A DNA stretch of 39,992 nucleotides, taken from positions 1 to 39,992 of IMG/VR virus record IMGVR_UViG_2875722834_000002; one strand, written 5' to 3'. The translations under genes and the position numbers were made by a program. The number at the start of each line of letters is the position of its first letter. Within the stretch, counting starts at the first letter, position 1. Below, one piece after another: positions 2,708 to 39,616 of the stretch. Below the pieces are notes generated by a model. The model had not been told where the DNA came from. It made no database searches and was given only the letters and a program-made list of their open reading frames with translations. The stretch is from a virus (taxonomy: Duplodnaviria > Heunggongvirae > Uroviricota > Caudoviricetes).

Positions 2708-3066
2708 TTCTTATTCTCCGGTGCTTTTGGCATTACTGCCCAGTGAGTGATATTGACGTTTTCAAGGTCCCCGACCTGAAATGTCCACTGCCATTCTCCG
2801 GTTTCTTTTTGTCCCCAGGTGTACCAGAGAGAACGCCAGCCAATTAGCCAGCCTTCTCCGTTAGCATCAAATAACAGAACACTTTCATTTGCTGGTGGCA
2901 GTTCAGCTGACACTGGTATTATTTTGTTTTCCAGTGCCGTACATTTAGCTTCAAGCGCATCGAATTTACGTACCAGGTACTCAGCATTTGTTTCGTTCAC
3001 TTTCAGATCTCGCGGTACACATTTCCCGCGAAGAAACCCTTCCATTTCGAAAACATTCATGCGCAT
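2704..3066 (-). CDS. DUF551-like phage protein (YfdS-like)
   Basis: C-terminal Trp-rich region ...GEGWLIGWRSLWYTWGQ...ITHWAVMPKAPE resembles DUF551; 120 aa, same size and position as CPS-53 YfdS. Confidence 0.55.
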   Translation of the reverse strand: MRMNVFEMEGFLRGKCVPRDLKVNETNAEYLVRKFDALEAKCTALENKIIPVSAELPPANESVLLFDANGEGWLIGWRSLWYTWGQKETGEWQWTFQVGDLENVNITHWAVMPKAPENKK

Positions 3067-3620
3067 TTGCGTAACTCCGATAACTCGTTAAAACGTTCCA
3101 TAAACATCCCGTAGGCATGGCCTGGTGACAGTGGAATAACTTTGAACATCTCTGTCGCCGGGATACCTTCCAGTACAGGCCAGAAAGAGCCATCATCAAG
3201 CCCGAGATCGCGGCGTTCGGTTGCCAGCATAATGAGATCGGCATATTTCACTGGCGTGCTCATAACAGGAGGTAACCCGTATTTCTCACGGATTACGGCG
3301 TCTATTTTTTCTTCCATCCGTTTATAGTCAGGAAGAAGGCGTTTCAGTGGTGCGGGGATGTCCTGGCAATATGCTTCTGTTGCATCATGCATTAACGCTT
3401 CAAAAGCAAATTCCTGCGGTACCAGCTGGCTGCAAAGCACCGCATGTTGGGCGACGCTGTAGAAGTGTGAAAGATGTCCTGCAAAGCGACAGATATTTGA
3501 AAGGGAAACCGCGACATCGTTAATAACGATGTCGTCTTTATTTATCCTGTCATAATAAAAATGCTTCCCGGAAAAAGTTTTAATAAATGACATTTTATTC
3601 TCCACGTATATGCGCTGCAC
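3057..3620 (-). CDS. HD-domain 5'-deoxynucleotidase (YfdR-like)
   Basis: HD phosphohydrolase signature (H...HD...D) in ...FAGHLSHFYSVAQHAV...ALMHDATEAYCQDIP...; order and size match CPS-53 yfdR. Confidence 0.7.
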   Translation of the reverse strand: MQRIYVENKMSFIKTFSGKHFYYDRINKDDIVINDVAVSLSNICRFAGHLSHFYSVAQHAVLCSQLVPQEFAFEALMHDATEAYCQDIPAPLKRLLPDYKRMEEKIDAVIREKYGLPPVMSTPVKYADLIMLATERRDLGLDDGSFWPVLEGIPATEMFKVIPLSPGHAYGMFMERFNELSELRKCA

Positions 3621-3720
3621 CGCGCTGAATTCTGGTAAAAGGAAGCCCTCACTATCCGGCGATTATTGAGTAAATTATGTTTCCATAAATGCCCCCGCAG
3701 GGGCATTTGCAGTAATGAAA

Positions 3721-4545
3721 TCAGGCGGTGAAAGTACCAATAAAGGTTTCTACTTTGCTGTCTTTAAATTTCTCAACAAGCAGATCACGAAATTCGTTAG
3801 CCATTTCTTCCTGCACCGCTTCCAGCTGAATAATGCGCAGAACCAGTACAGGACGATCGCCAGTGATAATGCTGAGGCGTAATTTAAACGGACGTTCTTT
3901 AAGGCCTTCAGACGGAACGCATTTAAATTCAAATGCCACTGGCATAATGTCTTTGGTCTTCGCTTCGACAGACTCCATCAGGGAGCGTTTGCCGCTGAAG
4001 TCATTATCTTCAAAATCAGCGGTCTGGTTTGCTTCAATCGTGATTTTACGGACTGCCGCAGCCGCTTTTGTTGCCTGAATGGCGTCACCATTCGCATCAA
4101 AGCCCACAAGGTAGTCGGCCCAGTCTTCAATCCATTCTGCCAGTGACTTCTGGGAGTTACGCTCGCCGTTAACAGACAACAGAGCAGAGAACGGTGCTGT
4201 CTTTTTCAGTTTGAGAGTGGCGGTGTTATCTGCGTGACCTGGTTCATCAATAGTACCCAGGTTAAGCACACTAACGGCACGCATATTATCAGCATCGATA
4301 AAGCAGCGGGTGCCTTCATCTGCAAGATCTTTAGAATAACGGGTAAAATCATCGATGCTGGCAGTGGAAAGCGCGCCACGGAAACGGAAGCGATTTAAAT
4401 TAAATTTTTCCAGATCATGAATGCGGAAATTCTCAGGCAATGCCACAGCATCGGCACCAATCTTACTGATAATTTCATTAACACCCTGAGCAGAAATAAG
4501 GGCATGGATTTGATTAATTGCGGTTGAGTCTAAGTTCTGAGACAT
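3721..4545 (-). CDS. YfdQ-like protein (DUF2303)
   Basis: 274 aa, N-terminus MSQNLDS..., positioned between the YfdP-like and YfdR-like genes as in CPS-53. Confidence 0.6.
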
Positions 4546-4610
4546 AATAAGTCCTCACTATATTAAGATATTCAGTGATGAGATAAATAATCAGTTAATT
4601 AAGAACGATA

Positions 4611-4973
4611 TTAATGACCTGCTGCGCGGAGTTTTCCGTCAGGTTCACCGGCAAGAGTCAGTAATTGTCCCTGGTCTTCCTGCAGAATAGTCAGGCGACC
4701 ACCGCGATTGACATACATCGGCGTTTCGGTGGTGTCTTCTTCGGAAATTTTCCCGCGGTTAGTCGGGCGAACATATGAGAGTTTGTGTTTGATTTTCACA
4801 CGGTTCTCATCAAATGGTTCGATTTCCAGGTTGAGTGAGACCTTCCCTTTGGTTTTCGTGTTCATCACACCGGAAGCGACTTCACTGAGAACTGCGCCGA
4901 TTTTGGTTTCAAATACGCCGCCGTCCAGCTCCCCGATAAATGCCTGCACATCAGTACTGCGTTCGCTAGCCAT
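4611..4973 (-). CDS. Hypothetical protein (YfdP-like, 120 aa)
   Basis: Track ORF 4611-5204 trimmed to the internal ATG (codon 4971-4973), which has a GAGGAG RBS; the upstream extension is Cys/Arg/His-rich and not protein-like. Confidence 0.55.
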   Translation of the reverse strand: MASERSTDVQAFIGELDGGVFETKIGAVLSEVASGVMNTKTKGKVSLNLEIEPFDENRVKIKHKLSYVRPTNRGKISEEDTTETPMYVNRGGRLTILQEDQGQLLTLAGEPDGKLRAAGH

Positions 4974-7544: not shown

Positions 7545-8486
7545 ATGAGCACTAAATTAACCGGCTATGTATGGGATGGTTGCGCTGCATCAGGCATGAA
7601 ATTATCCAGCGTGGCAATTATGGCCCGCCTGGCTGATTTCAGTAATGACGAAGGTGTGTGCTGGCCATCAATTGAAACTATTGCCCGTCAGATTGGCGCG
7701 GGGATGAGTACCGTCAGGACGGCTATCGCACGGCTGGAAGCAGAAGGCTGGTTAACGCGTAAGGCGCGTCGCCAGGGTAACCGCAATGCGTCGAATGTTT
7801 ATCAGCTTAACGTTGCGAAGCTTCAGGCAGCGGCATTTTCTCAACTGTCAGATTCTGACCCGTCAAAATCTGACGCATCAAAATCTGACCCGTCAAAATT
7901 TGATGCGTCGAAATCTGGCAAAAAAGCGGGTTTTCACCCGTCAGAATCTGGCGGGGATCCGTCAGTAAAATCAAAACATGATCCGTCAGATAAAAAACCT
8001 TCTCGTCCGGACGCTTCGCAACCGGACACGCAGACGGATGAACAGGATTTTTTAACTCGCCATCCTGATGCGGTTGTATTCAGCCCTAAAAAGCGCCAGT
8101 GGGGAACGCAGGATGATTTGACCTGCGCACAGTGGCTCTGGAAAAAAATCATCGCCCTGTACGAGCAGGCTGCCGAATGTGACGGCGAGGTGGTTCGTCC
8201 CAAAGAACCGAACTGGACAGCCTGGGCAAACGAAATTCGCCTGATGTGTGTGCAGGATGGTCGTACTCACAAACAAATCTGCGAGATGTACAGCCGCGTC
8301 AGCCGCGATCCGTTCTGGTGCCGTAACGTGCTCAGCCCGTCGAAGTTGCGGGAAAAATGGGATGAGCTTTCCCTGCGCTTATCACCGTCCGTCAGCACGT
8401 ACACCGAAAAACGCGAAGACCCGTACTTCAAATCCAGTTACGACAACGTGGACTACAGCCAGATCCCGGCAGGATTCAGGGGGTGA
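7545..8486 (+). CDS. Replication initiation / replisome-organiser protein (lambda O-like, N-terminal winged HTH)
   Basis: N-terminal HTH-like region, internal Ser/Asp/Lys-rich linker encoded by iteron repeats, located after the cro/YdaT-like genes. Confidence 0.7.
   Translation: MSTKLTGYVWDGCAASGMKLSSVAIMARLADFSNDEGVCWPSIETIARQIGAGMSTVRTAIARLEAEGWLTRKARRQGNRNASNVYQLNVAKLQAAAFSQLSDSDPSKSDASKSDPSKFDASKSGKKAGFHPSESGGDPSVKSKHDPSDKKPSRPDASQPDTQTDEQDFLTRHPDAVVFSPKKRQWGTQDDLTCAQWLWKKIIALYEQAAECDGEVVRPKEPNWTAWANEIRLMCVQDGRTHKQICEMYSRVSRDPFWCRNVLSPSKLREKWDELSLRLSPSVSTYTEKREDPYFKSSYDNVDYSQIPAGFRG
7847..7998 (+). repeat. Iteron array inside the O-like gene (putative phage replication origin)
   Basis: About 8 imperfect copies of a 15-bp unit cGTCAaAATCTGAC(c/g) (e.g. 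7861-7875, 7876-7890, 7891-7905), ending in ccgtcagataaaaaac. Confidence 0.6.
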
Positions 8487-8977
8487 TCATGAGTCTTTTG
8501 AATGAAGTTCAGAAATTCATTGAAGCCCATCCGGGATGTACTTCCGGAGACATTGCGGATGCTTTTGCAGGTTACTCACGGCAGCGCGTTCTGCAGTCAG
8601 CAAGCAAGTTACGTCAGAGTGGGCGTGTGGCTCACCGTTGTGAAGGAGATACACGCAGACATTTCCCGCGCCTGACTGAGAGAGCGCAGGAACCGGAACC
8701 ACAACCAGTTCGAGAAACCAGACCTGTGCGCAATTTCTATGTCGGCACTAACGATCCACGGGTGATTTTGTGCCTGACCCGCCAGGCTGAAGAACTGGAG
8801 TCCAGGGGCTTATACCGTCGTGCTGCAACCGTGTGGATGGCGGCATTCCGTGAAAGCCACTCCCAGCCAGAACGAAACAATTTTCTGGCGCGTCGTGAGC
8901 GGTGCTTACGGAAAAGCAGCAAGCGCGCTGCATCGGGTGAAGAGTGGTATCTGTCAGGGAATTACGTGGGGGCTTAA
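8483..8977 (+). CDS. PerC-family transcriptional activator-like protein
   Basis: C-terminal ...RQAEELESRGLYRRAATVWMAAF...ARRERC resembles the PerC family motif. Confidence 0.55.
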   Translation: MIMSLLNEVQKFIEAHPGCTSGDIADAFAGYSRQRVLQSASKLRQSGRVAHRCEGDTRRHFPRLTERAQEPEPQPVRETRPVRNFYVGTNDPRVILCLTRQAEELESRGLYRRAATVWMAAFRESHSQPERNNFLARRERCLRKSSKRAASGEEWYLSGNYVGA

Positions 8978-13537: not shown

Positions 13538-14590
13538 ATGAAAAATACTGTAAAAATAAACAGTGTTGATTTAATCAACGCTGATTGCCTGCATTTTATT
13601 CAGTCCTTGCCTGATGATTCCATTGATCTGATTGTTACCGATCCGCCGTACTTCAAAGTGAAGCCCAACGGCTGGGACAATCAGTGGAAAGGGGACGAAG
13701 ATTACCTGAAGTGGCTGGACTACTGTCTGGCCCAGTTCTGGCGGGTACTGAAACCAGCCGGAAGCCTTTACCTGTTCTGTGGACATCGCCTCGCATCTGA
13801 TATCGAGATCATGATGCGTGAACGTTTCAACGTGCTTAACCATATCATCTGGGCGAAGCCGTCCGGACGATGGAACGGGTGTAATAAAGAAAGCCTGCGG
13901 GCATATTTCCCCGCTACAGAGCGCGTTCTGTTTGCTGAACATTACCAGGGGCCATATCGCGGCAAAAGTGACGGCTATGCGGCAAAAGAAAGGGAACTCA
14001 AACAGCACATAATGGCACCGCTGATATCGTATTTCAGGGATGCTCGTGCCGAACTGGGTATAACGGCAAAACAAATTGCCGAAGCCACAGGTAAGAAAAA
14101 TATGGTTTCCCACTGGTTTGGTGCCAGTCAGTGGCAGTTGCCGAATGAGGCTGACTATCGGAAGTTACAGGCACTGTTTTCCCGTATAGCGGCAGAGAAG
14201 TTTCAGGAACAACAACTGGAACAACCACACCACCAGCTGGTGGCATCTTATGATTCACTGAATCGCAAATATTCTGAATTGCTGGATGAGTTTAAATCTC
14301 TCCGGCGCTATTTCTCCGTATCAGTCTCCGTGCCTTATACCGATGTCTGGACGCATAAGCCCGTTCAGTTCTACCCGGGTAAACATCCGTGCGAGAAACC
14401 GGCGGATATGCTCCGGCAAATAATCAATGCCAGTAGTCGACCTGGTGATCTGGTTGCTGATTTCTTTATGGGATCCGGTTCCACAATAAAAGCAGCAATG
14501 GCGCTGGGGCGTCGGGCGTTAGGTGTTGAACTTGAGTCAGAGCGGTTTAATCAGACGGTGAAAGAGGTAAGTGAACTGGTGGGGAAATAA
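13538..14590 (+). CDS. Orphan DNA methyltransferase (DPPY motif; N6-adenine or N4-cytosine class)
   Basis: Catalytic motif IVTDPPYF near the N-terminus and an AdoMet-binding-like FFMGSGST near the C-terminus; no adjacent restriction endonuclease. Confidence 0.8.
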   Translation: MKNTVKINSVDLINADCLHFIQSLPDDSIDLIVTDPPYFKVKPNGWDNQWKGDEDYLKWLDYCLAQFWRVLKPAGSLYLFCGHRLASDIEIMMRERFNVLNHIIWAKPSGRWNGCNKESLRAYFPATERVLFAEHYQGPYRGKSDGYAAKERELKQHIMAPLISYFRDARAELGITAKQIAEATGKKNMVSHWFGASQWQLPNEADYRKLQALFSRIAAEKFQEQQLEQPHHQLVASYDSLNRKYSELLDEFKSLRRYFSVSVSVPYTDVWTHKPVQFYPGKHPCEKPADMLRQIINASSRPGDLVADFFMGSGSTIKAAMALGRRALGVELESERFNQTVKEVSELVGK

Positions 14591-34046: not shown

Positions 34047-34967
34047 ATGCATCGCATAGACACGAAAACCGCGCAGAAGGATAAGTTCGGCGCGGGTAAG
34101 AACGGTTTTACCCGTGGTAACCCCCAGACCGGCACGCCTGCCACCGATCTGGATGATGACTACTTTGACATGTTGCAGGAAGAACTTTGTAGCGTTGTTG
34201 AGGCATCCGGTGCCAGTCTGGAGAAGGCGCGGCACGACCAGCTGCTTACCGCGCTTCGTGCGCTGCTGTTAAGCCGCAAGAATCCGTTTGGCGATATCAA
34301 ATCGGATGGCACGGTGAAAACGGCTCTCGAAAACCTTGGAATTGAAAGGGTTGAGCAGCTCAATAACGAAACGAGAATTTATACCGGGGCCGATGGCTCT
34401 TATCTTTCCGCCAGAGGCGATGGGCAATTTGGTATTTTCGATCCATCACGGGGATTTATTCCTCTGGGTGTTCAGCAGGGTGGGACGGGAGCCAGAGATG
34501 CAGAAGGGGCAAGGGACAAACTTGGTTTGGGCCGGATTGAGCAGCGAGATGGTGAAACGGTAATTTATTGCGACGATAAAAAAACTGCATATTTTACAGC
34601 ACGCGAAGATAATCAGTGGGGGCTTTTTGACGGCACAAAATTCGTACCATTGGGGGTTCAGCAAGGCGGTACTGGTGCGAACGATGCAGCCACGGCCAGA
34701 AATAATCTGGGGATGGGCAATGCAGCAACAGGCCATGTAAGAACTGGCAAGGTCTCACGGTCCGGTGATAAATTATTTGATACCCCGTTCCCCAACGAAT
34801 GTACTGCCATTGCATTCGGCGTAATGATTGGCCAAGCCTGGATGTTCTCTCCCTATGTCACGTACCTTAATAAGACGGGTTTTGGTTTTGATGGTCGGTG
34901 TTGGAGTGGCACTAGTGTTCTCCAACCATTCGCTGAAGATGTTTATTACATTGCCTGGGGAAAATAA
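34047..34967 (+). CDS. Side tail fibre protein
   Basis: Conserved N-terminal region then a variable C-terminus with internal repeats ([11 protein letters not shown]...LG twice). Confidence 0.8.
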
Positions 34968-34968
34968 G

Positions 34969-35385
34969 ATGACATATCAATACAGCGCTAAGAACAACGC
35001 ATTTTTTCGTACTGCTGAGCTGGCGAATTATGAGGATGCGGGTTGGGATCTATCTGACCTGGTTGACGTAACCACTGAGCAATTTACTGCGTTCACTCAG
35101 GATCGAACCGTTGATGGATTAGTGCGCATCGCAGGCAATGACGGCATGCCAACATGGGGTGAAATCCCCCCACGTACACCAGAAGAACTTGAAGCAGATG
35201 CGGTGTCCAAAAAAACATCCCTTATCGCATATGCAACACATATTATTGACCCACTTAAGGATGCTTTTGATGGTGACTATATTGATGATGCAGATAAGCC
35301 AAAACTCACGGCGTGGCAAAAATATCGCTATGCACTGACAAAGGTTGACCCAGTCAACCCTGTCTGGCCTGAGATGCCAATATAG
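34969..35385 (+). CDS. Tail fibre assembly chaperone (Tfa)
   Basis: ATG at 34969 two bases after the fibre stop; 138 aa. Confidence 0.75.
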   Translation: MTYQYSAKNNAFFRTAELANYEDAGWDLSDLVDVTTEQFTAFTQDRTVDGLVRIAGNDGMPTWGEIPPRTPEELEADAVSKKTSLIAYATHIIDPLKDAFDGDYIDDADKPKLTAWQKYRYALTKVDPVNPVWPEMPI

Positions 35386-35454
35386 GAACGTTTATGAAAA
35401 TGCAGAAATAGCGCGCAAATGGCATCGTTCCTGTTTTTGTCAGGAGGAGCAATC

Positions 35455-36012
35455 ATGCTTATTGGCTATGTTCGCGTATCAACAAATGACCAGAACACCG
35501 ATCTACAACGTAATGCGTTGAACTGTGCAGGATGTGAGCTGATTTTTGAAGATAAGATCAGCGGCACTAAGTCCGACCGACCGGGACTGAAAAAACTGCT
35601 CAGAACATTATCAGCAGGTGACACTCTGGTAGTCTGGAAACTGGACCGACTGGGGCGCAGTATGCGGCATCTTGTCGTGCTGGTGGAGGAGTTGCGCGAA
35701 CGTGGCGTTAATTTTCGCAGCCTGACGGATGCTATTGATACCAGCACACCAATGGGACGCTTTTTCTTTCATGTGATGGGTGCCCTGGCTGAAATGGAGC
35801 GAGAGCTTATTGTCGAACGTACTAGGGCGGGCTTTGCCGCAGCACGACAAGAAGGGAGGAATGGTGGGCGAAAGCCAAAGCTGACAGTAGAACAATGGGA
35901 GCAGGCTGGCAGGTTGATTGAATCGGGAATATATCAGCAGCAAGTCGCACTGATTTATGATCTGGGTATTTCAACGGTGTATAAAAAATTCCCTGTAGCA
36001 AGTAAACCATAA
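35455..36012 (+). CDS. Serine-recombinase DNA invertase (Pin/Gin/Hin/Cin family)
   Basis: ATG at 35455 with AGGAGG RBS; N-terminus MLIGYVRVSTNDQNTDLQ with the catalytic Ser; C-terminal HTH; 185 aa. Confidence 0.85.
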   Translation: MLIGYVRVSTNDQNTDLQRNALNCAGCELIFEDKISGTKSDRPGLKKLLRTLSAGDTLVVWKLDRLGRSMRHLVVLVEELRERGVNFRSLTDAIDTSTPMGRFFFHVMGALAEMERELIVERTRAGFAAARQEGRNGGRKPKLTVEQWEQAGRLIESGIYQQQVALIYDLGISTVYKKFPVASKP

Positions 36013-36038
36013 CCTTACGCCACATTGATGATCGCGGA

Positions 36039-36734
36039 TTATGCACTATTTTTAGGTCTTGTAACCCGAGGTGGGAGTTGTTTGGTTATATGTTCAAGTG
36101 ATTTTTTGCCCAAGATAGTTCTTTGGACAAAACTTTCTATAGCTTCTAGCATTTGTTCGAACTCACTTTTATTCGGGCTCCAACTGCGATGTGCGGCGGC
36201 GTTTCCTGCATCAATTACAGAAGATATAACGCATGCCTCAGTGTCGCCTATGACTCCATCTTGTTTTAATTTTTCAACTTTTTCACCAAGCGGCAAACCG
36301 GGGTGAATTTGTAACAGTTCAGCAGTTCGATCAAAAATCGTCCGTAAACCGATGGACGAAAGGATGAAATGGTCAGAAGTATATGAAGAATACATTTCAT
36401 TAAATATTTGAAAGAGCTGACGATCAACTGATTCAAGCTTGGATAACCATATCGGAGCTTGAAATGTTTCAGCGGCAGGATAGGTAGTGATCATATCTAT
36501 AGGCGTTTCTACAAATTCACCATCACGATATTCGTGGGTAGTATGCTCACTGAAGTGTTCGTTGTGGTGATAGAAGACAGTATCACAGCCATTGCATTGG
36601 AGTAGGTGATGGTAATGGTACCCATAAACTGGATATTGGGAATCCTCCCAGCTAGTGGTTAGCTTCCCATGCACAGTGCAGTTACGTAACCCACCGCATG
36701 TAGGGCAAAGAGCCTTGAGTATTTCCTTTTTCAT
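36039..36734 (-). CDS. Zinc-ribbon protein with C-terminal DUF4145-like helical domain (candidate Abi/defence gene)
   Basis: N-terminal CPTCGG...C...CNGC zinc ribbon; C-terminal ...GEKVEKLKQDGVIGDTEACVISSVIDAGNAAAHRSW...FEQMLEAIESFVQRTI resembles DUF4145; AT-rich; own sigma70-like promoter. Confidence 0.6.
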   Translation of the reverse strand: MKKEILKALCPTCGGLRNCTVHGKLTTSWEDSQYPVYGYHYHHLLQCNGCDTVFYHHNEHFSEHTTHEYRDGEFVETPIDMITTYPAAETFQAPIWLSKLESVDRQLFQIFNEMYSSYTSDHFILSSIGLRTIFDRTAELLQIHPGLPLGEKVEKLKQDGVIGDTEACVISSVIDAGNAAAHRSWSPNKSEFEQMLEAIESFVQRTILGKKSLEHITKQLPPRVTRPKNSA

Positions 36735-37082
36735 AAAGTCTCTGATTCTATATGTAGGTTAAGACCACTATTAGCTATACGGACCTAATAATCAATCGTG
36801 TGCAGATACAAAAAAGCCCGTATAGCGGGATTTCATGTCACTAAGGGCCGCGGCTACTTTGCGTATCTTTTTTGTCTTCTCACCGTCTGGCCGGTATTTT
36901 GCTGAGACTGCTTATTTCCAGTTTTTACTAGTGCTGTACTGGTACTGCCCAATCATGATTGGTGGGGGACGGAGTTGAAACCGCAGCCACGTCGTATGCA
37001 AGAACGCGCTGCGGTTGGCTGGTGAACTTTCGATAGTGCGAGTATTGAATGATTTCCAGCCGTTACAGATTTTACGTGTTTA

Positions 37083-37331
37083 TTAGTGAACAAACCACTC
37101 GTCAGCAGATTCCCAGGTATCTTTCAGAGTCTCCTGAACAAAAGTTTTTGCAGAATCCTTATCTGCGGTGCGTGTAACAGAAAGGCCATCATTGCTGGTG
37201 GCTTTTACTAACACCTCAACATCGTCATAACGCTTACTGATGCGTCGGGTTAATTCTTCCTTTAACGCATCCACAGCACCGGTTGGCATTTTAGTCATTT
37301 TTTCTTTGGCTATGCAGATTTCAATACGCAT
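37083..37331 (-). CDS. dinI: DinI-family protein
   Basis: 82 aa, [11 protein letters not shown]...[16 protein letters not shown] matches the DinI family; two LexA boxes upstream. Confidence 0.8.
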
Positions 37332-37346
37332 AAAAGTCCCTCCATA

Positions 37347-37390
37347 CTGTGTTTGTATACAGTATTATTTTTAACTGTATGGATAAACAG
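37347..37390. promoter_or_regulatory. Two LexA (SOS) boxes in the dinI promoter region
   Basis: CTGT-N8-ACAG twice: ctgtgtttgtatacag (37347-37362) and ctgtatggataaacag (37375-37390). Confidence 0.65.
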
Positions 37391-37392
37391 TG

Positions 37393-38490
37393 TCAAGAGG
37401 TCTTATTTCTGCTCCTTTGGAGCTCTTCAAAACGATTATGTAAAGATTTCGGATACAGTTCGGTATATACCTGCCATAGCACGTTTAATGAACGATGCCC
37501 TGTAACCTGGGCGACTTCCTCAATACTAAAACCAGCCTCAAATAAGCGACTTGCCCCTTCTCTACGCAAATCATGGTATCGCAGATCCTTAATACCTAAT
37601 TTGCTTCTTACTCTCTGAAATCCCGCAGTAACAGAAGTGCTGTTATATGGAAAAATGAATTCCGATTTTTGGGGCTGTCGTTGGACGATATCCCAGGCTT
37701 CCCCAAGCAAGGCTACTTTCATGTGGTTGCCTTCCTTTTTGCGTGGATCTTTCCTGTCTCTTACGAGTATAGATTTTTGTTCCTGGTCGAGATCTTCCCA
37801 TCGTAACCGGCATACTTCTCCGATTCGCATACAGGACCATACAGAAAATTTGAGGATATCAACGAACGGAATTTTTGAGCATTTATGAGTAGATCGTTGT
37901 TGAAGGCCTGCAATGAGCATGTCCAGTTCATCAGATGCTGGTCTACGATTACGACGGTTTGATTTACCAATCAAACCAAGTTTAAGTAGATATGGGCGAG
38001 CGCTTATCGCCGGGTTTGATGTGTAATTAATTCCGTATACAGGTTTGGCCGCATCCAGAACACTGCCAAGATAACTAACATCGTGGCTGACTGTTGCAGG
38101 ACCTGCACCAGCGTTGTTTCTTAGCCTGCAATGTTCAATTACGTCATTTTCTGTCAGTTCAGATAGTTTGATCGCGGAGATGTCACTATCCATAAGCAGT
38201 TCCAGCACATATCTTTTAGTACGGCCTGCTTTACCTCCGGCATTTGGGTCATTTAAATATTTGTGTAGTAAGTCACGGACTGTAAGTCCGTCAACTGCAT
38301 TTGATGATGGAATGCCATATAGATCTAATTCCATCACTTTCTGTGTGCCCCATGTTTTGGCATGAGCATGTTTAGGGAATGTTTTGCTTTCCCTGTAAGT
38401 GATAACACCTTTTTCTTTGATAATCACATTACAGCGATAGCGTGGTGTGCCATCGGATTTTAGTCGTTTCTCTATGTTATAGTACGCCAT
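37393..38490 (-). CDS. int: Tyrosine integrase (dusA-associated type)
   Basis: 365 aa; C-terminal catalytic region with HDLRR, GHRS and a Tyr in ...WQVYTELY; divergent from dusA. Confidence 0.85.
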   Translation of the reverse strand: MAYYNIEKRLKSDGTPRYRCNVIIKEKGVITYRESKTFPKHAHAKTWGTQKVMELDLYGIPSSNAVDGLTVRDLLHKYLNDPNAGGKAGRTKRYVLELLMDSDISAIKLSELTENDVIEHCRLRNNAGAGPATVSHDVSYLGSVLDAAKPVYGINYTSNPAISARPYLLKLGLIGKSNRRNRRPASDELDMLIAGLQQRSTHKCSKIPFVDILKFSVWSCMRIGEVCRLRWEDLDQEQKSILVRDRKDPRKKEGNHMKVALLGEAWDIVQRQPQKSEFIFPYNSTSVTAGFQRVRSKLGIKDLRYHDLRREGASRLFEAGFSIEEVAQVTGHRSLNVLWQVYTELYPKSLHNRFEELQRSRNKTS

Positions 38491-38578
38491 TACACGACCT
38501 CGTTATTTCGGGTTCCCATAAAACGTGGGAACCTGTGCGGGAACCTAACGCGAGAAAAATAGCCTGAAATGTTCAAAA

Positions 38579-39616
38579 ATGCACGATAATCATGAAACAA
38601 AAAAAATTAATCAAACCAGCGTGATGCCTGAAAAAACTGGTGTTTACTGGAATTCTCGGTTTAGCATTGCTCCTATGCTCGACTGGACGGACAGACATTG
38701 CCGCTATTTCTTGCGTCTGCTTTCCCGCAATACGTTGCTGTATACCGAAATGGTGACCACAGGGGCGATTATTCACGGTAAAGGTGATTATCTGGCGTAC
38801 AGTGAAGAAGAACATCCGGTAGCGTTGCAACTGGGCGGTAGCGATCCGGCGGCGCTGGCGCAGTGTGCAAAGCTGGCAGAAGCGCGCGGATATGATGAGA
38901 TCAACCTGAATGTCGGCTGCCCGTCTGACCGGGTGCAGAACGGCATGTTTGGTGCGTGTCTGATGGGTAATGCGCAGCTGGTTGCCGACTGCGTGAAAGC
39001 GATGCGCGATGTGGTGTCGATTCCGGTGACGGTGAAAACGCGTATTGGCATCGACGACCAGGACAGCTATGAATTTCTCTGCGATTTCATCAATACCGTT
39101 TCCGGCAATGGCGAGTGTGAGATGTTCATCATCCACGCACGTAAAGCCTGGCTTTCGGGGTTAAGCCCGAAAGAAAACCGTGAAATCCCGCCGCTCGATT
39201 ATCCGCGTGTGTATCAACTGAAGCGTGACTTTCCGCATCTGACAATGTCGATTAACGGTGGTATCAAGTCGCTGGAAGAGGCCAAAGCACACCTGCAACA
39301 TATGGATGGCGTGATGGTCGGGCGCGAGGCGTATCAGAATCCGGGTATTCTGGCGGCGGTAGACCGGGAGATCTTTGGTTCCTCGGATACCGATGCCGAT
39401 CCGGTGGCGGTAGTGCGCGCCATGTATCCGTACATTGAGCGTGAACTCAGCCAGGGGACGTATCTCGGCCATATTACCCGGCATATGTTGGGCTTGTTCC
39501 AGGGTATTCCTGGCGCGCGGCAGTGGCGGCGTTATTTAAGTGAAAATGCCCATAAAGCGGGTGCAGACATTAATGTGCTGGAACACGCGCTCAAACTGGT
39601 GGCGGATAAGCGTTAA
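38579..39616 (+). CDS. dusA: tRNA-dihydrouridine synthase A; the true start may be the internal ATG at 38624, and the 5' end may be prophage-derived
   Basis: Full-length Dus family protein matching enterobacterial DusA over essentially its whole length. Confidence 0.9.

Follow-up and report, generated by a model that had tools for sequence, protein, structure and literature searches.

A stand-alone zinc-ribbon and DUF4145 (HEPN) cargo gene in an Escherichia coli dusA prophage, probably encoding a distant relative of the defence protein RAZR (PD-T7-4)

The window analysed, i.e. the whole 39,992-nt stretch of IMG/VR virus record IMGVR_UViG_2875722834_000002, is a Mu/SfV-type myovirus prophage at dusA in Escherichia coli. 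Near one of its ends, between an invertase gene and a dinI-integrase module, an initial annotation made from the letters alone had placed a stand-alone gene for a protein with an N-terminal zinc ribbon and a C-terminal DUF4145-like region, proposing it to be a defence or abortive-infection (Abi) system that corresponded to no specific published one. The gene is real, and such a system is in print: RAZR (PMC13017515), also known as PD-T7-4 (PMC9519451), has exactly this zinc-ribbon plus DUF4145 architecture. The protein encoded in the window is probably a distant relative of RAZR, and an instance of a now-known kind of single-gene immunity based on a zinc ribbon and DUF4145. The gene and the parts of its product are the following:

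36039..36734, minus strand: open reading frame (ORF) of 231 aa, WP_001514810.1, zinc ribbon plus DUF4145/HEPN, RAZR-like (ORF list, Pfam, phrog_1305, RefSeq, purifying selection)
36480..36734, minus strand: N-terminal beta-rich, putative zinc-binding domain, residues 1–85 (AlphaFold2 model; hhalign to the RAZR zinc-finger domain)
36696..36707, minus strand: first CxxC, Cys10 and Cys13 (sequence; family conservation)
36585..36596, minus strand: second CxxC, Cys47 and Cys50 (sequence; family conservation)
36075..36446, minus strand: HEPN (DUF4145) helical domain, residues 97–220
36342..36344, minus strand: Arg131, aligned with the invariant Arg105 of RAZR (hhalign columns; 116/116)
36213..36215, minus strand: Ile174, the equivalent of the catalytic Arg146 of RAZR (alignment; never Arg in the family)
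36186..36191, minus strand: His182-Arg183, within the motif [DE]AG[SN]AAAHRGW (family conservation; alignment to RAZR)

The ORF was present as first described and begins with an ATG codon; RefSeq names the identical protein simply 'DUF4145 domain-containing protein', and no mention of WP_001514810 was found in the literature searched. When the ORF was compared with orthologues from Citrobacter, Enterobacter and Atlantibacter plus two metagenomic relatives, synonymous sites proved saturated (pS 0.73–0.88) while pN was 0.09–0.25, and dN/dS, where computable, was 0.04–0.10. The ORF is a real gene, and it is under purifying selection.

The two cysteine pairs taken initially for a zinc ribbon, which are spaced as C-x2-C-x33-C-x2-C, lie in a domain modelled by AlphaFold2 as five strands (residues 1–85; mean predicted local distance difference test score, pLDDT, 83, with 82–95 over the domain), the fourth and fifth of which form a long hairpin (residues 53–85). 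The likeness of the C-terminal region to DUF4145 was borne out as well: PF13643 matched residues 115–199 at E = 8.8e-10 (39 bits, above the gathering threshold of 23.1), and the protein has the four-helix up-down core of the HEPN fold. The match to phrog_1305 (E = 5e-43) spans the full length of the protein (residues 2–225). Searches of viral collections gave little: when 50,697 phage genomes were searched with the protein by tblastn, nothing matched at 1e-5, and a BFVD structural search returned only two full-length matches, neither of them named.

The family to which the protein belongs is large. When 1.84 billion cluster representatives (50%-identity clusters) were searched with a profile, 287 clusters matched at E ≤ 1e-30, rising to 2,693 at E ≤ 1e-3; the 150 best were almost without exception full-length matches, of about 220–260 aa. 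A scan with one genome per species yielded 148 loci in Alpha-, Beta- and Gammaproteobacteria, Acidobacteriota, Bacteroidota and Chloroflexota. Residue conservation was assessed in 116 diverse members, among which the mean column identity was 29%. Cys10 and Cys47 were each present in all 116, and Cys13 and Cys50 each in 115. Within the HEPN domain, Arg131, His182, Trp185 and Pro221 were found in every member, Arg183 in 112, and Asp135 in 111 (the other five having Glu). Position 174 was occupied by Thr (39 members), Val (38), Ile (32), Ala (6) or Leu (1). None of the positions from 170 to 176 has a conserved Arg in these 116 members, so that only the His of the HEPN Rx4-6H motif is there; according to the literature, about 20% of DUF4145 members lack this catalytic motif.

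RAZR, the 'ring-activated zinc-finger RNase' (Zhang et al., Nature 2026, PMC13017515), was first found as PD-T7-4 and described as 'Zn finger-HEPN' (Vassallo et al. 2022, PMC9519451). It is an experimentally established single-gene abortive-infection system of 219 aa, the N-terminal Cys4 zinc ribbon of which senses ring-shaped phage proteins (a portal and a recombinase-like ring); the protein forms a 24-mer, its DUF4145/HEPN domain cuts single-stranded RNA, and the substitutions R146A and H154A, which alter its catalytic R-x7-H pair, abolish defence (PMC13017515). RAZR comes from E. coli UMB1727, and its structures are PDB 9Y9C/9Y6U. The cargo protein is like RAZR in several respects. Both are products of single stand-alone genes of around 220 codons (231 aa for the cargo protein) with no conserved partner, both are found on integrase-bearing mobile elements, and both consist of an N-terminal Cys4 zinc ribbon (C-x2-C-x29-C-x2-C in RAZR), a linker and a C-terminal DUF4145/HEPN domain. 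In the secondary-structure strings of the AlphaFold2 models, five strands and the helices follow in the same order, and in both the conserved His comes right behind helix four. RAZR also matched phrog_1305 in full (4e-28, residues 14–193), and two distant members of the cargo family matched it too. Alignment by hhalign was collinear but weak; that of the HEPN domains (E = 0.0017, 15% probability) was notable for the pairing of R131 with R105, GN with GN, H182 with H154 and P221 with P196, and that of the zinc domains (E = 0.001) brought both CxxC pairs into register; by BLASTP the two proteins showed about 30% identity over just 63 residues (E = 0.05).

There are also differences from RAZR. 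The cargo family has an Arg directly after the conserved His, and the β4–β5 hairpin of the cargo protein is much longer (residues 53–85 as opposed to 55–64 in RAZR). There is overlap between the RAZR gene and an integrase gene, at the 3′-end of the latter, while the cargo gene is separate and convergent with an invertase gene. Judged from the alignments and models, the cargo protein and RAZR share a superfamily and an architecture, but the cargo family is distinct and has a different active-site make-up.

The gene is a stand-alone piece of accessory cargo (a 'moron') of the prophage, as had been proposed: it is missing from otherwise syntenic dusA prophages and has no conserved partner. The surrounding features are these:

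35419..36012, plus strand: Pin/Gin-type serine invertase gene, convergent with the cargo gene over a 26-nt gap (Pfam Resolvase 5.8e-51, and HTH_7)
36735..36809, minus strand: cargo-specific upstream region of 75 nt, the presumed promoter site (homology with other dinI modules stops at 36810)
36810..36829, minus strand: intrinsic-terminator-like hairpin followed by U6 (fold energy; compensatory changes in prophage remnant L025)
36979..37016, minus strand: strong GC hairpin just 3′ of dinI, without a good U tract (ΔG –19.6)
37083..37331, minus strand: dinI-like gene (Pfam DinI 1.1e-19)
37393..38490, minus strand: dusA-specific tyrosine integrase gene, at the prophage end (Pfam Phage_integrase 8.4e-21; dusA adjacent in RefSeq)

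Among 5,426 complete E. coli genomes, the cargo gene was present in 34, always in this prophage at dusA and with at least 99.5% identity, while the dinI-int module was found in about 706 genomes. The slot upstream of dinI was sampled in eleven prophage types. In five it was empty or held a remnant (empty, for example, in the otherwise syntenic dusA prophages L002 and L035); in three it held type III secretion system (T3SS) effector genes (NleG-like, EspW, EspM2), and in one each a YkgJ remnant, a system of the defence-associated reverse transcriptase (DRT) class, and the zinc-ribbon plus DUF4145 gene. The DRT pair (2879–4778 of locus L004; E. coli isolate 2-101, NZ_CP053785.1) occupies the equivalent slot upstream of dinI-int at dusA, and was identified by PADLOC as the reverse transcriptase RT_UG17 (1e-158) with an RT-associated SLATT protein (1.5e-56). 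The term 'hotspot' used at first for this location was thus too strong: with the slot empty or holding a remnant in about half of the sampled types, and with virulence cargo as frequent there as defence cargo, it is a cargo site that sometimes carries defence genes rather than a dedicated defence hotspot. The effector-bearing loci (L003, L006 and L036) are lambdoid prophages at dusA in strains of the enterohaemorrhagic/enteropathogenic E. coli type, with the same dinI-int-dusA module and with DUF1076/NleG-like, espW and espM2 genes at the equivalent position. Since this module is common to phages of different morphotypes, it is exchanged between phage types, bearing virulence cargo in some and defence cargo in others. 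One record labelled as a plasmid (pSX12-2, 55.6 kb, NZ_CP142787.1) also contains the gene, with the prophage end, but was rejected as evidence of mobility; the chromosomal genes dusA, pspG, qorA, dnaB, alr and tyrB are on it too, and in all probability it is chromosomal DNA that was misassembled.

A low GC content had been noted for the cargo gene. The ORF (41.7%) is indeed well below the tail module (55.3%), but dinI (43.0%) and int (42.8%) are too, and the low-GC tract covers ∼34350–38700; low GC therefore marks the whole prophage end and not this gene alone. The extent first given to the element (36013–37082) also needed trimming. Discrete junctions lie at 36810 and at 36974–36978, the latter being where most dusA prophages regain homology (BLAST boundaries against L002, L003 and L006). 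By these comparisons the cargo-specific DNA is about 36013–36809, and 36810–37082 is the conserved 3′ region of dinI. The poly-T hairpin that had been placed near 36811–36830 as a separator from dinI does exist: the stem CCCGCUAUACGGG (36829–36817, minus strand) is followed by U6 at 36815–36810, its ΔG is –12.1 kcal/mol (z = –3.1; none of 200 shuffled sequences folded equally well), and compensatory changes preserve it in L025. However, the block common to the window and L025 is 36810–37397, and as this homology begins at 36810, the hairpin belongs to the dinI-side module and not to the cargo. It is predicted to be the end of that module, insulating the cargo gene from transcription of dinI and int. 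On the other side of the cargo gene, the 26-nt gap to the convergent invertase gene folded no better than shuffled sequences when a terminator was sought there.

The promoter proposed for the gene, TTGATT-16-TAATAG, did not hold up. It is located at 36795–36768, a few bases away from where it had been placed, agrees with the consensus at 7 of 12 positions (no better than chance) and has a –10 hexamer that does not end in the conserved T; it was not among the sites listed by a promoter consensus scan. The region contained four promoter-like sites against 3.6 expected from shuffled sequence, and a second weak candidate, TAGAAT, lies at 36750–36745. LexA control of the cargo gene was ruled out, no LexA box being found upstream of it. 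Prophage dinI, on the other hand, is probably under SOS control, since two perfect boxes (CTGT-N8-ACAG) stand in tandem upstream of it (37347–37362 and 37375–37390, between dinI and int); a third perfect match to the box occurs elsewhere in the window, at 13548–13563.

The ∼270 nt of non-coding DNA from the dinI stop codon to the U6 terminator is 85–90% conserved in the unrelated prophage remnants L025 and L026. Comparison with these two revealed no conserved ORF in 36810–37082, and an Rfam search of the whole window returned zero matches; the region could be a long 3′ untranslated region (UTR) of dinI or the source of a 3′UTR-derived small RNA. Opposite the spacer that parts the cargo gene from dinI, the plus strand has a hydrophobic 47-aa ORF (36835–36978). 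That it encodes a small toxin or antitoxin was considered and discarded; its start codon and frame are not kept in L025 or L026, and it is probably not a gene. As for the invertase gene (35419–36012, compared with 5444–6000 of L023 among others), it aligns with common pinE genes only up to ∼35930, the last ∼80 nt being different, and it is more variable (93–98% identity) than the adjacent cargo gene (at least 99.5%). It is frameshifted in strain 720632. This pattern suggests recombination among pin genes.

Relatives of the gene in Enterobacterales were always prophage cargo lying past the tail-fibre genes, and usually the outermost gene. Enterobacter has the identical protein, encoded at the extremities of prophages of the P2-like, lambdoid and P22-like kinds, where the other morons are gtrABC, acetyltransferase, DinI and UmuDC-like genes; comparable arrangements were seen in Citrobacter, Atlantibacter and metagenomic contigs, one of them directly beside an AbiTii gene. 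A Rahnella relative is accompanied by Mrr, an integrase and a second DUF4145 gene. This Rahnella aceris contig (L014) has its two different DUF4145 genes 4 kb apart (3304–4050 and 8001–8764), together with the Mrr-type restriction enzyme, an endonuclease-like gene, the integrase and an ART-PolyVal fragment, and has the look of a minor defence islet carried by a mobile element. A Cedecea relative lies in an island resembling an integrative and conjugative element (ICE), with MobA, AlpA and PemK, and an Erwinia relative lies in a SymE islet. A Burkholderia relative adjoins a Gabija-like AAA_15 and UvrD pair and a PRTase/RT module, another relative adjoins a PIN toxin–antitoxin pair and an AAA plus S8 protease pair, and another is directly downstream of a gyrB-like gene. 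In four Pseudomonas species (L044, L045, L051 and L057), the relative is inside a P2-type tail cluster, between gpR/gpS and gpV/W/J; this position, between tail-completion and baseplate genes, differs from that seen in Enterobacterales. In Sphingomonadales it lies within ∼1 kb of the edge of an element of at least 9 kb that is 97.5–99.98% identical across at least nine genera (loci L061–L067, L070, L073 and L075), including Aurantiacibacter, Croceicoccus, Qipengyuania, Novosphingobium, Alteriqipengyuania and Citromicrobium. Such identity points to very recent transfer between genera.

The survey of neighbourhoods for defence-island enrichment that had been suggested at the outset was made over three genes on each side at 50 species-level loci; it used ORF calls of our own and no matched background control, and any enrichment is to be read qualitatively only. 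Several integrases, transposases and resolvases were among the neighbours, and in the second 25 loci restriction-modification (R-M) genes were frequent: HsdR three to four times, HsdM three times, HsdS twice and type IIG enzymes two to three times. In no context examined was there a conserved partner gene. Some R-M, AbiTii and Gabija-like neighbours were thus found, but the family is associated mainly with mobile elements and partly with R-M, and classical defence islands are not its dominant setting. For systems borne on prophages, this pattern had also been reported by those who discovered PD-T7-4 (PMC9519451).

Given a Cys4 beta domain with a HEPN fold C-terminal to it, a conserved site, a superfamily link with RAZR and the status of prophage cargo, a defence or abortive-infection role is still the best inference for the function of the protein, because its domain order, topology and PHROG family are common to the experimentally characterised RAZR/PD-T7-4. 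The reading we favour, with a probability of roughly one half, is that of a RAZR-like stand-alone sensor-effector, expressed from the prophage and causing abortive infection by RNA cleavage. Expression in the lysogen, a defence phenotype, a trigger, oligomerisation and RNase activity are what we infer by this analogy. As with RAZR, the protein would be made in the lysogen and be harmless alone. On infection by another phage, its N-terminal Cys4 zinc-ribbon domain would bind a phage-made protein assembly, and binding would rearrange or oligomerise the C-terminal HEPN domains, such that an active RNase site arises where HEPN domains pair. RNA would then be cut non-specifically, halting translation and aborting the infection, so that the population of lysogens is protected along with its prophage.

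A number of results weigh against this interpretation. Foremost, the position of the essential Arg146 of RAZR is occupied by Thr, Val, Ile, Ala or Leu in all 116 family members, while 40 of 40 RAZR relatives have Arg there, and none of the 116 has an Arg 4–8 residues ahead of His182; since the catalytic Arg is absent from the family, the RNase part of the proposal is not secure. The hhalign probabilities with respect to RAZR were low (15–21%), and HMMER searches with the cargo protein and with 16- and 116-member profiles failed to reach the RAZR chain 9y9c at E ≤ 10, although a control query made from a generic zinc-ribbon plus DUF4145 consensus found that chain in PDB sequences at 9e-10. Neither the cargo protein nor any of 116 relatives matched the PD-T7-4 model of PADLOC (PDLC04109; PADLOC v2.0.0 was the sole defence finder used), while the RAZR positive control (RAZR-like P0167) scored 2.2e-102. 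In RAZR the zinc domain is the hypervariable part that determines specificity; in the cargo family the trend goes the same way but is weak. Pairwise identity in the zinc and HEPN domains is 43 and 88% for RAZR, but 28 and 40% for the cargo family at large and 67 and 69% for close relatives, so the zinc domain of the cargo family is just slightly more variable than its HEPN domain. The promoter consensus scan found no site at threshold upstream of the gene, only about 4–5 of the 150 genes flanking the first 25 diverse loci matched PADLOC defence models, and many neighbours in the survey were housekeeping genes. Finally, a literature search found no published phenotype for any family member.

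Were the protein catalytic, it would have to use another basic residue, for which the invariant Arg131 and the near-invariant Arg183 are the candidates; the conserved His-Arg dyad, taken with Arg131, suggests that the active site has been rebuilt and is not dead. A more tentative reading, to which we give clearly less weight, takes the protein as the E. coli member of a large and taxonomically broad sister family of RAZR, one overlooked by the defence finders now in use. Its site would either have been rebuilt without the canonical Arg, from the invariant His-Arg dyad and the helix-2 Arg, or be non-nucleolytic, and its enlarged sensor (the zinc ribbon with the β-hairpin) would serve for other phage or plasmid assemblies.

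A less likely but serious rival is that the HEPN domain is non-catalytic altogether, the protein being a regulator or a blocker, not an RNase, that binds nucleic acid or a ligand through its His/Arg/Trp patch and zinc ribbon; its targets might be the transcripts or DNA of a superinfecting phage or of the prophage itself. No experimental basis is given for the PHROG label, and the same PHROG includes RAZR, which is an RNase. Moreover, the His aligned with the catalytic His of RAZR is invariant and has a near-invariant Arg beside it, which points to a rebuilt site and not to a decayed one.

We also consider it improbable that the gene is a selfish toxin, an addiction-type module or a general stress RNase that stabilises its mobile element without any specific anti-phage role. 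Its repeated occurrence at the extreme end of mobile elements (prophages, the ICE-like island with PemK, the Sphingomonadales element) would suit such a role, as would the presence of SymE, PIN and PemK toxins among the neighbours and of HEPN toxins of toxin–antitoxin systems among the closest folds. However, about 15 annotated contexts contained no conserved adjacent antitoxin-like gene, and a toxin encoded by one gene and lacking an antidote could serve for addiction only by inhibiting itself, and that is in any case the logic of the RAZR type. Slightly weaker again is the case for an R-M accessory or a factor directed against plasmids and other mobile genetic elements, like the HEPN-DUF4145 protein Ishtar, in place of anti-phage Abi. 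R-M components are known that have DUF4145 fused to them or encoded in their operon, R-M genes of types I and IIG were frequent in the second 25 loci, and DUF4145-containing Ishtar proteins block RP4 conjugation; but in E. coli and other Enterobacterales the gene stands alone in prophages with no R-M genes nearby, and Ishtar has the opposite domain order, with HEPN N-terminal. A functional tie to invertase/tail-fibre switching or to SOS genes (dinI, umuDC-like) is largely refuted: although the gene and its neighbouring invertase allele occur in the same ∼34 E. coli genomes and the Enterobacterales copies are often a few genes away from DinI, S24 peptidase and UmuC-like genes, no invertase is adjacent in any prophage context outside E. 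coli (the homologues in other genera having none beside them), upstream LexA boxes are found at dinI (two, both perfect) but not at the cargo gene, the two genes are separated by a terminator, and distant members are in unrelated contexts.

If the protein does defend, it would represent a second, widespread branch of RAZR-type single-protein immune sensors, and, as PADLOC v2.0.0 does not annotate this branch, the defence content of prophages would be undercounted. The family also offers a natural experiment on HEPN catalysis, in that all of it retains the His yet never has the Arg indispensable to RAZR; whether it cuts RNA, and by which residues, would inform the evolution of HEPN active sites. 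Its zinc domain is enlarged relative to that of RAZR, and a comparison of the two would show if sensors of this type are generally activated by ring assemblies of phages or if this is one solution among several. If the protein does not defend, it would mark a limit to inferring defence from a zinc-ribbon plus HEPN architecture.

Among known systems, the gene resembles other prophage morons in its position and behaviour. In prophage e14, mcrA follows pin, at the tail-fibre/attachment-site end. Like mcrA in e14 and gtrABC in P22-like phages, the cargo gene lies beyond the tail-fibre/invertase module at the prophage end, has a GC content below that of the structural genes and is variably present among related prophages; the proteins and mechanisms of those morons are unrelated to the cargo protein. 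DUF4145-type HEPN domains are likewise found in other conflict systems, namely the BREX-associated BxaP, the anti-plasmid Ishtar1 and DUF4145-HsdR fusions, but in these the HEPN domain is N-terminal, the C-terminal parts are HEAT-like or beta-rich, and there is no zinc ribbon. HepT/MNT-type toxins (5yep, 7ae6), the C-terminal domain of AbiA, and AbiV have the canonical Rx4-6H motif and/or a partner (the MNT antitoxin, an RT domain), unlike the cargo protein, which has neither partner nor motif Arg. DS-38 (DefensePredictor, WP_001313577.1), a validated E. coli defence system, is like the cargo protein a single protein combining a zinc finger with a HEPN domain. The two are set apart by accession and by length (the DS-38 gene is of 1,101 nt, i.e. 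∼366 aa, compared with 231 aa), and according to its authors it is only the HEPN domain of DS-38 that aligns with PD-T7-4.

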